A stretch of DNA of 59,645 nucleotides from an uncultured Candidatus Saccharibacteria bacterium (lineage in GTDB: Bacteria; Patescibacteriota; Minisyncoccia; Phycocordibacterales; UBA9973): the NCBI GenBank assembly GCA_964626965.1, contig CAZVHB010000007.1, positions 1 through 59,645 of the forward strand, in the 5' to 3' direction. Below are positions 43,595 to 57,910 of the stretch, piece after piece. The notes below the pieces were generated by a model. That model had not been told where the DNA came from and made no database searches. It worked only from the letters and a program-made list of their open reading frames with translations. Both the position numbers and the translations under genes were made by a program. Within the stretch, counting starts at the first letter, position 1, and every line of letters starts with the position of its first letter.

Positions 43595-46500
43595 ATGATT
43601 CTGTCTTTTTTGCAAAAAAAAATAAAAAACAAAAAACAAAAGACGGATAGAAAATCCCTTGGTTCTGTACGATCGATGCAAGATATTTTTTTTGATTCAA
43701 AAAGAAGGTTTGTTTCTTTTAAGAAAAAACATTGGATTATTAAAATAAATAAAGCTCCTTTTTTTTACCTTTTAGAAAATAAAGAAACTGTAAAAAGGTG
43801 TGCTATTTTTCTGTTGATTATTTTCATGCTTGGATTATTTTCTCCATTTACTGATGCAAATGTTTCGACATTTTATCCATCTACGTGTCTTGGTGGATGG
43901 GAACATCCTGAAAATGCTATCGGCGAACCATCTCTCAGTCAGAAATCTCACATAGAAGATTTTACCTTAGGTAATTCAGCGCGTCTCCATCAAACAAATG
44001 CGTCACTGTATTGTGGTGGTTTCAAGGGTTCTGTTCCACTTAATACAACTCCAAAAAAATTTCAACTTTCCTTTGGGTGGTCAGTCGATGATGGTACTGT
44101 AGTGCATCCTGAAGTGAGACCATTTGAACCTGTGTTCAATAGTTCAAGTACAACAGTGCTTACACCGAGTGAAGTAGTTACCCCTACAGTGGATGTTGAA
44201 ACAACTGAAGTTGAAGTGGTTGAAATTACTCCTTCTATAGATACATCAGTTGAAACCACGCAAGCACCAAGTGTGGTTGAAGTGCCTCCAGCTGTAATAA
44301 CACCAGAAACTCCCGCTGTTGTTACAGAGAGTGGTCCTCTTTCATTTTTAAAAAACATACTATTGAAAACAGTATTTGCGCAAGAAATAGAAAGTACTCC
44401 TGCTCCAGTAGAAAGTAGTGATACAATCCAAGCAACTCCTGTTGATGAGAGTATTGCCAACACACCAACAGAGCAAGTAATTTATTTAAATGAGACACCA
44501 GAAGAGACACCAGAAGTAACTCCAGAGGTAACACCTTCTCCTGAAGGAGTAATTAATTCGCCAGAAACAAATAATACGCTACTGTCTATCGATAGTATAC
44601 AAGCTCCACCTGTTGCTGTTGAAACACCAGCTGATGCATTTCTTGAAGTTCAGTACACGCTTGACGGAATAGAATGGAAAACACTCGGTACTGTTTCTCG
44701 GAGTGCTTGGAAAAACGTGACATTTGATATTCCGTTGAATGAATGGGAAAACTTGGATCATCTGCAAGTATCACTTAAAACATTGCCAAGTTTTGATACG
44801 ACGCCAACAGTGTATCTCGATAGTATGACGTTGAGTGTTGAGTATGATGAGATCCAAGGTGAAGTAGTTCCACCGACCGTTATCTTGAAAGACGCGAGTA
44901 GTATGATTTCTGGTAAAAAGGATTTTACACAAGGCGATGAAGTTGAATTTATTATATCTACTCCATACTTAGAAGTAGAAGATTTAAAAAATTTAGTAAA
45001 AGCTGGAACGGCTGAGATACTAGAAGATCATGCTGGTGTGCTCGATGATCGTCTGATTGATTTAAATATAGAAAATCAAAATAACAAAAGTCAATTGGAT
45101 ATTATAAAACAAAGTATTCAACCAACAATCAACCAGATTATTGATTCGGTTCCCAATACGACATCACTTGTCCCTTCACCAGAATCTTTTGTCGTCCCTG
45201 TAGTCGAGTCACCTGTTGAAGTCATTGAAATCACATCACCTGAAGCATTAGTTCTACCTGTTCCAGAAAAAGAGAGTACGTCTCCTACGCAAACTCCTGT
45301 ACAGAAAATGACAGAGCTAAACCCACTCTCTTTTCAACCTCTCATTCCGAGAGTCCATGCGCAAGAAATATCCGAAGCTTCAGAAACACCAGAAATAACA
45401 GCTCTGGTGTTTGACAATAATGGTGAAGTGACTGATATAGGAACACATATTGAAACAGTTCTTGTTGGAGGTACTGAAAAACAACGTGTCCGGATCGATA
45501 AACCAAAGCGTGAATTTAAACCCGGAAGGTATACGTTAAAAGTGACGTTGATGACAGTAAATGCAACAATTATTTCTACGCAAGATTTTACGTGGGGTGT
45601 ACTTGCGATAAACGTTGATAAGTCTGTCTATCAAGGAGGTGATGATGCCTATTTACAGATGGGTGTACTTACTGATCACGGTCATACAATATGTAACGCT
45701 GACTTAGATCTTATTATAAAAACACCAAACGGTGCGACTACTCACCTCACCACTGATGACAAATCTATTATTCGAGATCCCGAGTGTGGACCAGATAATG
45801 TGATTGATGTTCCAGACTATCATGCCGAGTATCATGTTCCAAATCAGGTAGGTGTGTATGAAATGACACTGACTGCGGTAACTATGAATGGGACAAAAAC
45901 CATTATTGATCATTTCACTGTTGAGGAAAATCCACTAGTCACTGTGAGTCGTACTGGTCCAACACGTATCTATCCTGTTGCAAATTATCCTGTGACACTT
46001 TCTGTTACGTCGCCCGTGAATTGGTCTGGATCGATTATCGAGAAAGTTCCAGTAAGTTTTGGTGTTTTACAACCAATACATAGTTTGGGTTATGATGCCG
46101 TAGAAACACAAGGTGTTGAAAAAATTATTACCTGGCATGTAGATTTGCAGGCAGGAGAGAAAAAAACTCTTGGATATATTTTTGATGCACCAAATATTTC
46201 TCCTGAATTTTATTTACTTGGGCCACTTGAATTGTACGCAGAGAATATAAGTACTCCAGTTTTTTCTGAATCTCGAAATTGGCAAATTGCTTCTGATGCG
46301 GCATGTAATGCTACCGGTACTGGTACCTGGGGTGGAACCGATACAGCGAACTTTGCTAATTGTACCGGAGCTGCTTCTGGTGGAACCGGAACAGGGAATC
46401 GACCCGGAGCTGGTGATGATCTAACTATTGATGCTGGCGTCACAGTGACACTTGATGTAAGTGCCACTGTCAATACACTTACTATTGCTGACCCAACAAC

Positions 46501-57016: not shown

Positions 57017-57910
57017 ATGTATCAAAAAATTTTTAAAATTATATTTTTATTTAGTCTTGTGTTTTTGAGTACCCATACTGTGTTTGCTTCACGTGTGTTT
57101 ATTGATGACACACTAAAAACATTCCCGTCAGATAAGGAATTCTTCATGGATGTTTTTTTAGATACAGAAGGCTCTGTCATTAACGCAGTAAAAGGGGAAA
57201 TTGTTTTCCCTGATGAATTACTAGATTTTTCTCGTGTGAGTAGTAATAATTCAATTGTGAGTACGTGGATTGAACCTGTACAGCAAAATGGGAATACTGT
57301 TTATTTTTCAGGTATTATTTTTAATGGTTTTGATACTGTGGTTGATCCTGTGACTCTTGAAGAAAAAAAAGGTACTTTACTCCGTGTTTATTTTAAAGCA
57401 AAAAAAGAGGGAAGCGGTGTCATAAAAATTATTGATCCAGTTGTGTATAAAAATGATGGTCAAGGTACACCTATTCGATTGAAAGATGAGACGACTCTAT
57501 TTGTTGTTTCTTCTTCTGTGAATGGGCAATTTCCTAGTGAAGTCTTAGATATCACACCACCTGAACCATTTACTCCAAGGATCACAAAAAGTCAGGATGT
57601 ATTTGAAGGTAAGTTTTTTCTGGTTTTTAATACAACTGATAAAGAGAGTGGTATTGATCATTATGAGGTAAAAGAAGGGGATAGAGACTGGATTATAACA
57701 CCGAGTCCATATGGCATCATGAGTGGAAATCTACTCCAGACGATACAAGTGAAGGCGGTTGATCGCGCTGGGAATATCAGAATAGAAAATGTACAAAATG
57801 TACCAAGTACTTTTTATGTGCTGATTTTCATTATTTTATTATGTATACTTGTGTTCTATTTTATTCGTGTGTATCTACGAAGGCACAAAAAAGATACCCT
57901 AGGAGAGTAA
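57017..57910 (+). CDS. Membrane-anchored cohesin-domain protein
   Basis: ATG 57017. Cohesin-like pattern (FFMDVFLDTEGSVINAVKGEIVFPDELLDF...GTLLRVYFKAKKEGSGVIKI), an Ig-like domain (DKESGIDHYEV...VKAVDRAGN), and a C-terminal TM helix. Confidence 0.65.
   Translation: MYQKIFKIIFLFSLVFLSTHTVFASRVFIDDTLKTFPSDKEFFMDVFLDTEGSVINAVKGEIVFPDELLDFSRVSSNNSIVSTWIEPVQQNGNTVYFSGIIFNGFDTVVDPVTLEEKKGTLLRVYFKAKKEGSGVIKIIDPVVYKNDGQGTPIRLKDETTLFVVSSSVNGQFPSEVLDITPPEPFTPRITKSQDVFEGKFFLVFNTTDKESGIDHYEVKEGDRDWIITPSPYGIMSGNLLQTIQVKAVDRAGNIRIENVQNVPSTFYVLIFIILLCILVFYFIRVYLRRHKKDTLGE

Follow-up and report, generated by a model that had tools for sequence, protein, structure and literature searches.

Introduction

WxL/WxLIP (Csc) clusters are known from Lactobacillales and Bacillales (Siezen, 2006, PMC1534035; Hassan and Williamson, PMC9772566, PMC10599100), and a cluster is defined by the presence of at least one WxLIP together with a small and a large WxL protein (PMC10599100, PMC9772566). 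WxLIPs are 337–365 amino acids (aa) long, consist of a signal peptide, two immunoglobulin-like (Ig) domains and a transmembrane (TM) helix, and carry the conserved motif NQIDKxxxYFDLK near the N-terminus (PMC10599100). WxL domains were first described as peptidoglycan binders (PMC9772566), and a hairpin of WxLIP is predicted to act as the strand that completes the WxL sandwich (PMC10599100, PMC9772566). The PDB holds a WxLIP (9i1y) and a WxLIP in complex with a long WxL protein (9i25), and no paper was found for either entry. Here, a six-gene locus (G1–G6) at positions 43595–57910 of a 59,645-nucleotide (nt) stretch of DNA, referred to as the window, is compared with these systems. The named homologues of its products belong to Patescibacteria, and the host is therefore assigned to the candidate phyla radiation (CPR), as had been supposed in a first-pass annotation of the same DNA; the taxonomy of relatives is given throughout by the names attached to homologues in the source databases.

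Host attachment and interaction is a central open question in the biology of CPR/Patescibacteria. To our knowledge, type IV pili are essentially the sole surface machinery that has been assigned in these organisms. On a modest balance of probability, and by analogy, the locus appears to be the equivalent, in Patescibacteria, of the WxL/WxLIP (Csc) system by which Gram-positive bacteria display proteins non-covalently on their surface. The gene set and its topology, the relationship of G4 to WxLIP, the modular C-terminal tag of the candidate client proteins, and the invariant adjacency of a client gene and the receptor-like gene that follows it are established here. In the literature library searched, no paper linking WxL or DUF916 with Patescibacteria or CPR was found, and the cluster is not described in the CPR papers that were consulted.

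Organization of the Six-Gene Locus

The locus carries six open reading frames (ORFs), all in the same direction:

G1, 43595..52774 (+), 3,059 aa: secreted giant protein, designated the large client
G2, 52913..54025 (+), 370 aa: secreted protein, designated a small client
G3, 54133..55245 (+), 370 aa from ATG: tandem duplicate of G2
G4, 55251..56321 (+), 356 aa: WxLIP-like protein, putative receptor
G5, 56328..57008 (+), 226 aa: secreted protein with a C-terminal dockerin
G6, 57017..57910 (+), 297 aa (304 aa if TTG 56996 is the start): TM-anchored protein

The gaps from G1 to G6 are 138, 107, 5, and 6 nt, followed by about 8 nt or a 13-nt overlap, and G4 thus starts 5 nt past the stop codon of G3. 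For G3, ATG 54133 is a likelier start than the TTG 54055 of the ORF list. In a Kyte–Doolittle hydropathy scan, an N-terminal hydrophobic, signal-like segment is present in all six products, and a C-terminal TM helix is limited to G4 (residues 293–318) and G6 (residues ~266–289). The description of the locus in the first-pass annotation as six co-oriented, closely spaced genes for secreted or anchored products thus stands, as does that of G2 and G3 as two secreted 370-aa paralogs, which are 98% identical at the amino-acid level. The Pfam and NCBIfam matches of G1–G6 are all at or under the curated thresholds. An LPxTG sorting tail (CscD-type) is found neither in G1–G6 nor in any other ORF of the window, and a scan for promoters and terminators gave no enrichment relative to shuffled sequences.

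G4, a Remote Relative of WxLIP

G4 is a remote homolog of WxLIP in its first domain and is WxLIP-like in overall architecture, at levels under the family thresholds. Its AlphaFold model (predicted local distance difference test, pLDDT, 89.7) consists of a signal peptide, two β-sandwich domains, and a long terminal helix, which agrees with the architecture first annotated from the sequence, and the hydropathy scan places hydrophobic segments at residues 8–32 and 293–318:

G4 domain 1, residues ~30–155: DUF916-like Ig domain
G4 domain 2, residues ~160–290: second Ig-like domain
G4 TM helix, 56127–56204 (+), residues 293–318, with a cytoplasmic tail of ~38 aa after the helix

The best Foldseek matches of this model in the PDB are the Enterococcus faecium WxLIP crystal structures 9i1y (free) and 9i25_C (bound to long WxL), both at E 1e-10 over ~270 columns with 16% identity. 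These are followed by chaperones of chaperone–usher systems (CsuC, CfaA, PapD, and Caf1M; E 1e-8 to 1e-6), so that a PapD-like protein, named as an alternative in the first-pass annotation, corresponds to the more distant likeness; in all, the model gathers 298 matches at E ≤ 1e-3. Pfam PapD matches are absent from the G4 family, which has 923 members at E ≤ 1e-3, the named ones being Patescibacteria.

For comparison at the level of sequence profiles, 68 Bacilli WxLIP loci were retrieved by the use of NQIDKxxxYFDLK as a degenerate DNA pattern, which retrieved no CPR locus. These loci yielded 57 WxLIPs of distinct sequence as well as 44 WxL domains, examples of which serve as positive controls with scores of 128–222 bits when run against Pfam WxL and WxLIP. 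Profile–profile comparison (hhalign) of the G4 family with the 57 genuine WxLIPs gives 94.6% (E 6.5e-8). When the stringency is relaxed, the two families align co-linearly all the way from the signal peptide through the TM helix. Domain 1 matches the genuine DUF916/PGBD domain with 93.6% (E 2e-7), compared with E 0.2–0.9 in the controls for this match and E 0.03–0.9 in the full set of cross-controls for the G4 domains. G4 itself scores 16.1 bits on Pfam DUF916 (PF06030; cut-off 27.3), and weak Pfam WxLIP_PGBD matches occur in 30 of 46 G4 homologs (best 5e-6). DUF3324 (PF11797) gives no Pfam match in G4 or among the top families of the 46 homologs, and only fold and position agree. The earlier likening of G4 to CscA (DUF916 plus DUF3324) is consequently upheld for the DUF916 part and for the structural match, and not for the DUF3324 part.

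A C-Terminal Domain Common to G1, G2, and G3

A C-terminal domain of ~160–165 aa, referred to below as the client domain, is common to G1, G2, and G3:

G1 client domain, 52286..52774 (+), residues 2898–3059, LSFDIN...IGFGSL...GGYVVT...EYSTSITYIATGTF
G2 client domain, 53477–54022 (+)
G3 client domain, 54697–55242 (+)

The first-pass annotation had proposed this common domain, and the evidence for it lies at the profile level only. In BLASTP, just the last 14 residues of the G1 tail align with G2, and a hidden Markov model (HMM) of G2-type C-terminal domains alone does not retrieve G1. Because both methods are too insensitive, profile–profile comparison and bridging sequences were needed: hhalign of the full family alignments of the G1 tail and G2 gives 99.9% (E 8e-34), and that of the trimmed C-terminal domain families alone gives 96.2% (E 2.6e-9, 155 columns). 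A merged profile of the G1- and G2-type domains (A4) matches G1 at E 1e-56, G2 at 2e-48, and G3 at 4e-47, and no other protein of the window; the A3_C profile matches the C-terminal domain of G1 at E 2e-68. The G1 tail has 605 close homologs, mostly Patescibacteria proteins of 310–370 aa, many of which have a G2-like N-terminal domain.

When searched against 1.84 billion representative proteins, the A4 profile matches 2,383 clusters (50% identity) at E ≤ 1e-3. The end of the domain is the last residue of the protein in 150 of the 150 matches listed, in carriers of 160–3,243 aa, and the passenger parts are varied and extracellular in kind (Laminin_G_3, which is a ConA-like lectin domain, RCC1 propellers, DUF2341, DUF7483, NIDO, and BclA_C). 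These results define the client domain as a modular tag that is confined to the C-terminus. The domain ends in the conserved motif A-T-G/A-T/N-F and is modeled by AlphaFold as a closed sandwich with pLDDT >90. Named carriers belong to Patescibacteria or Nomurabacteria, and one family member is annotated as [quoted passage not shown]. Relatives of the domain were found in none of Pfam, NCBIfam, and the sequences of the PDB, and PDB sequence searches (phmmer or profile) with G2, G4, G6, the G4 family, and the client-domain profile returned nothing relevant.

Structure of the Putative Small Clients

G2 consists of a signal peptide, an N-terminal β-sandwich, a linker (I-x-DDDQV-x-V-x-A-x-V), and the C-terminal client domain, and belongs to a family of at least 478 proteins. 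Its AlphaFold model (pLDDT 89.2) has two β domains. When used at full length, this two-domain model matches mostly generic two-Ig adhesins in Foldseek (integrin, MSCRAMMs, Als). Matches confined to a single domain are those to TTHA1873 and to the class-5 pilin CfaB (E 2.7e-3, TMt 0.54). The linker (residues 178–190 of G2, nt 53444–53480, and likewise in G3) contains several invariant or nearly invariant positions; its DDDQV-x-V-x-A-x-V part is found neither in G1 nor in Cys-rich small proteins with the same C-terminal domain. The lowest confidence in the G2 model (pLDDT ~57) falls on residues 179–189 of the linker, and segments 66–81 and 131–150 of G4 have pLDDT ~71–78, so that the most conserved segments are the least confident ones in the AlphaFold monomers, a pattern that fits folding of strands induced by a partner.

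In a subgroup of clients (e.g., P0244, P0248, and P0306), the G2-type N-terminal domain is replaced by a Cys-containing one with the motifs GTLSC.V..C, NAHAE, and VCC.GV.GLGNSC. At the DNA level, 52911–53908 and 54131–55128 of G2 and G3 are 100% identical across 998 nt, from a point 2 nt ahead of the ATG onwards, and the last ~115 nt (53909–54022 in G2) differ at 29 positions (25%), with only nine residues changed; this variable part encodes the last strands of the client domain. The pattern resembles the outcome of a recent gene conversion that affected the 5′ portion of a duplication older than itself, or else an assembly artifact.

Conserved Order of Candidate Client and Receptor-Like Genes

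Gene neighborhoods were collected with six G4 homologs (43–54% identity) and three client-domain proteins as seeds. From either type of seed, a client gene is followed directly by a G4-like gene in all nine loci with downstream DNA, with gaps of 5–60 nt across divergent loci; contig L078 ends at the client gene. The six-gene order is found again in independent contigs in which the G4 homolog is ~45–54% identical. A giant protein with a client domain (1,130–2,582 aa), orthologous to G1, heads the cluster in five loci (L001, L003, L073, L074, and L076), the small-protein gene is duplicated in L003 as it is in the window, and orthologs of G5 (dockerin) and G6 followed by a G6 paralog continue the cluster in seven loci. 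These neighborhoods show that the genes co-occur in related genomes, and they bear out the csc/WxL-like combination of parts put forward in the first-pass annotation: as in WxL clusters, the WxLIP-like gene comes after genes for one large and one or two small proteins that have a domain in common, always at the C-terminus. Genuine Bacilli clusters have the same order, and among 63 cases WxL immediately precedes WxLIP in 34 and comes after it in one.

Contig L077, the client protein of which is named Doudnabacteria, carries at 7977–12306 a client gene, a G4-like gene, a divergent client gene (E 7e-12), and a divergent G4-like gene (E 5e-29), and has no genes for G5 or G6. These tandem pairs suggest that cognate client–receptor pairs duplicate together. 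Because L077 has two such pairs and neither G5 nor G6, a client and G4 are taken to form the core unit, and the dockerin/cohesin-like pair is taken to be an add-on.

A Proposed Mechanism and Its Alternatives

In the proposed mechanism, G4 would be exported and would remain attached to the cytoplasmic membrane through its C-terminal helix, with its two Ig-like domains serving as the receptor. G1, a giant β-helix adhesin-like protein, as well as G2 and G3 would be secreted and captured by G4 via the shared ~165-aa C-terminal β-sandwich domain, most likely through a loop or hairpin of G4 that engages this domain by β-strand complementation, in the manner of the WxLIP–WxL complex, and the N-terminal passenger parts of the captured clients would point outwards. 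G5 (dockerin) and G6 (TM-anchored, cohesin-like) may constitute a second, separable docking pair encoded by this operon. Capture by strand complementation is proposed because of the analogy with the WxLIP–WxL model and the complex 9i25, from which we infer that G4 physically binds its clients and does so by strand insertion. The biological role of the system may be host-cell attachment, which the first-pass annotation had also named as a possibility.

Several results weigh against a WxL/WxLIP-type system. The structural ranking of G4 alone is not decisive because the E-values of the chaperones (~1e-8) are near that of WxLIP. Domain 2 of G4 has no significant match to the genuine DUF3324/HBD domain (hhalign 4%, E 0.01), and G4 lacks the NQIDKxxxYFDLK motif, the aligned position reading VSPIRFELSGDAG. 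On the client side, Pfam WxL (PF13731) has no match in G1–G3 or in 42 homologs, even at E ≤ 10, and the client domain lacks W-x-L motifs and is nearly free of Trp. Comparison of this domain with the 44 genuine WxL domains gives hhalign values of 0.3–2.6% (E 0.02–0.2), none of them significant in local, global, or low-mact modes, and these values are at background because a control comparison of the G4 family with WxL domains reaches E 0.008. The low-mact alignment is co-linear (the FG strand, GG[YA]xV with GWxL, and Yxx(L)T[YF] with YxxLTWxL) and has a background score. None of the 50 best Foldseek matches of G2, modeled at full length, is a WxL chain of 9i25. Membership of the client domain in the WxL family is not supported by the Pfam, motif, and hhalign results. 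SCPU and Fimbrial Pfam signals are likewise absent from G1–G3 and from 42 G2 homologs (E ≤ 10), with PapD_C at E 0.056 in one of 42 members as the sole signal of the PapD/Fimbrial/SCPU type, and the initial likening of the domain to WxL or SCPU was thus not confirmed.

The likeness of G4 to chaperones raises the alternative that the locus encodes a usher-independent donor-strand fiber, in which G2 and G3 polymerize, G1, with an acceptor domain and no donor strand, is the tip adhesin, and G4 acts from the membrane as a PapD-like chaperone or as a platform for assembly, so that the locus would be a monoderm analog of chaperone–usher pili and not a system for static display. The Foldseek matches of the G4 model to CsuC, CfaA, PapD, and Caf1M accord with this idea, as do the single-domain match of G2 to CfaB, which is the partner of CfaA, the duplication of the small-protein gene in the window and in L003, and the linker, which alternates in hydrophobicity, is modeled with low pLDDT, and is present in the small proteins and absent from G1. 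A fiber of this kind is nevertheless unlikely: the cluster contains no usher, sortase, or other polymerase (usher PF00577 is absent from G1–G6 and from the called genes of the nine related loci), the client domain is modeled as closed, hundreds of unrelated passengers bear this domain and would all need to be tips, Pfam PapD_N, PapD_C, Fimbrial, and SCPU give no signal beyond the single PapD_C match, and G4 is nearer in sequence to WxLIP than to any chaperone. It is alternatively conceivable, and quite unlikely in our estimation, that the client domain works by itself as a module for sorting or cell-wall binding, with a role like that of SLH, LysM, the C-terminal domain of type IX secretion (T9SS CTD), or PEP-CTERM, and that G4 is merely co-transcribed and serves, for example, as an adhesin or S-layer base that does not bind clients directly. 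The strict C-terminal position and the terminal A-T-G/A-T/N-F motif do resemble sorting tags, and peptidoglycan binding was the function originally ascribed to WxL domains (PMC9772566); against this stand the invariant order of client and G4 genes with its short gaps, the paired duplication in L077, the relationship of G4 to a protein with a solved client complex (9i25), and the absence of a processing enzyme from the cluster.

Chance or generic Ig-fold similarity within a run of unrelated hypothetical surface proteins might be considered, given that the Pfam and NCBIfam matches of the six proteins do not exceed the curated thresholds and that two-Ig queries gather many Foldseek matches, as the 298 obtained with G4 illustrate. 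This explanation is highly improbable and is already contradicted by synteny and by the hhalign controls: the profile–profile match of G4 is domain-specific with clean negative controls, the six-gene order is kept at ~45–54% identity of the G4 homologs, and the families are very large (923 members for G4 and 2,383 clusters for the client domain).

The Putative Giant Client G1

G1 is made up of an N-terminal hydrophobic segment, linkers rich in P, T, E, and V, Ig-like regions, five repeats, and the C-terminal client domain:

G1 hydrophobic segment, 43784..43858 (+), residues 64–88, ...CAIFLLIIFMLGLFSPFTDA, ends FTDA (Kyte–Doolittle scan)
G1 tandem repeats, 46475..51553 (+), residues 961–2653: five repeats of ~338 aa each

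The segment at residues 64–88 is the sole hydrophobic segment of G1 and is a signal peptide or signal anchor. Since this single stretch lies near the N-terminus and a C-terminal TM helix is absent, G1 is better called secreted or signal-anchored than TM-anchored, as it had first been labeled. The segment is preceded by a strongly basic (K/R-rich) leader of 63 residues (43595–43783), which reflects either an internal Met start (e.g., residue 28) or an unusually long n-region.

The repeats surfaced in BLASTP with one repeat as the query, self-comparison of the whole of G1 being uninformative; repeat 1 is 59%, 48%, 46%, and 33% identical to repeats 2–5, respectively. The spacing of the repeat motif is 334–341 aa, T, G, A, and S together account for >55% of the residues, and the repeats probably form a β-helix stalk. 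A match of residues 631–666 to WxLIP_HBD (E 0.006, below threshold) was put down to generic similarity of Ig strands.

The Dockerin and Cohesin-Like Proteins G5 and G6

G5 has an Ig-like middle region followed by a C-terminal dockerin. In G6, a signal peptide precedes a possible cohesin-like β domain, after which come a Big_13/OmpL47-like Ig domain and, at the C-terminus, a TM helix:

G5 dockerin, 56844–57005 (+), residues 173–226: two calcium-loop repeats, DLNCDGRVDIIDLSIL and DLNGDKQIELGDFSVL
G6 TM helix, ~57812–57883 (+), residues ~266–289 (hydropathy scan)

Residues 173–226 of G5 contain two loops of the DxNxDGxxD type. On Pfam Dockerin_1 (PF00404), G5 scores 22.9 bits, which is exactly the gathering cut-off, all eight of its weak PDB sequence matches are dockerins, and its orthologs in related loci carry Dockerin_1/Big_6 marks, in keeping with the dockerin assignment made at first reading. 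G6 had been read as a TM-anchored cohesin protein, for which the TM helix is found and the cohesin signals stay sub-threshold: Pfam Cohesin (PF00963) is sub-threshold in three of 12 members of the G6 family (E ≥ 0.045), and the G6 profile matches the scaffoldin cohesins 5aoz and 5m2o at E 0.06–0.13. The NCBIfam OmpL47-type barrel matches G6 at E 1.9e-5. G5 and G6 could plausibly form a cohesin–dockerin pair.

Surroundings of the Locus

The cluster is flanked by housekeeping genes (PheT, GyrB, ThrRS, CTP synthase, and a P-type ATPase), for which reason the DNA is considered chromosomal with no obvious mobile element, and an origin from a prophage or other mobile element was dismissed.

Downstream of the cluster, 58756–59226 (+) encodes a Lys-/Ala-rich protein of 156 aa with a single N-terminal hydrophobic segment. 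Behind this ORF, at 59229–59264, the opposite strand carries a strong hairpin and a T-run. In related loci, the position of this ORF is occupied by the G6 paralog. In several related contigs, the cluster is followed by a glutamate dehydrogenase gene and then, at a distance of 3–6 kb from the cluster, by genes with VirB4/VirD4-like marks (DUF87, T4SS-DNA_transf, TrwB/TraG) (L001, 16304–21086; L074, 17668–20872; L076, 17796–21065).

Elsewhere in the window, a full-length LOOT RNA (Rfam RF03000) is located at 29067–29195 (+), with 80 bits against a gathering score of 46.4. It is intergenic and lies just upstream of a divergent gene for a large serine recombinase at 27593–28966 (−), the domains of which are Resolvase, Recombinase, and Zn_ribbon_recom.

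Significance

The locus is a testable candidate for a means of holding very large adhesin-like proteins that involves neither an LPxTG protein in the cluster nor an outer membrane. Its scale is considerable, with at least 2,383 clusters of client-domain proteins and carriers of up to ~3,200 aa. The client domain and the G4 putative receptor are two large families without a Pfam or NCBIfam model. A C-terminal domain ending in ...(T/S)LT(Y/F)xAT(G/A)(T/N)F would provide a cataloging rule for the displayed surface proteome. The findings also take the WxLIP fold, and the operon plan in which a client gene precedes the receptor gene, well outside Bacilli, and bear on the origin of the WxL system and on its relationship to the chaperones of chaperone–usher systems.

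A wider proposal, which we regard as tentative and somewhat unlikely, is that a phylum-wide, usher-free strand-complementation machinery exists in which the G4 family, as a chaperone-like receptor tethered to the membrane, anchors client-domain proteins and polymerizes them into the fibers or giant adhesins with which these episymbionts hold their hosts. If true, such machinery would be an evolutionary bridge from Gram-positive WxL/WxLIP display to Gram-negative chaperone–usher pili.

Comparison with Known Systems

Non-cellulosomal cohesin–dockerin pairs resemble the last two genes of the locus, in that G5 has a two-repeat calcium-loop dockerin and the next gene encodes a membrane-anchored protein (G6) with an N-terminal β domain and weak cohesin signals. 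The differences are that the cohesin of G6 is sub-threshold, that enzymes and a scaffoldin are absent, that a WxLIP-like operon surrounds the pair, and that at least one related locus, L077, does not have it.

Chaperone–usher pili of the archaic Csu and class 5 CFA/I types share with the locus the two-domain PapD-like fold of G4, the resemblance of one G2 domain to the pilin CfaB, and strand complementation as a plausible mode of interaction. The locus differs from them in having no outer membrane and no usher, in the anchoring of G4 in the membrane rather than its being soluble, in the absence of PapD, Fimbrial, or SCPU matches at the sequence level, and in the closed form in which the client domain is modeled.

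The differences from WxL/WxLIP clusters concern mainly the clients and the accessory genes. The client domain is another sequence family (no W-x-L, no PF13731, hhalign at background), and G2 and G3 have an extra N-terminal domain, whereas small WxL proteins consist of the WxL domain alone. G4 lacks NQIDKxxxYFDLK, and DUF3324 is undetectable in it by sequence; the Patescibacteria cluster contains no LPxTG protein (CscD, which is frequent in WxL clusters and not obligatory), includes an added dockerin/cohesin-like pair, and resides in Patescibacteria instead of Bacilli. The two systems agree, however, in the architecture and length of the receptor-like protein (G4, of 356 aa, has two Ig-like domains between its signal peptide and its C-terminal TM helix), the first domain of which is a detectable remote homolog of DUF916. 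They also agree in that each cluster encodes a large secreted protein and one or two small ones, all of which end in a common domain of ~160–200 aa found strictly at the C-terminus. In both, the large clients have adhesin-type passengers of β-helix or Ig kind, the client genes lie directly upstream of the receptor gene, and all products are secreted. The WxLIP-type receptor and the operon logic are what is already known, and the client domain and the phylum are what is new.

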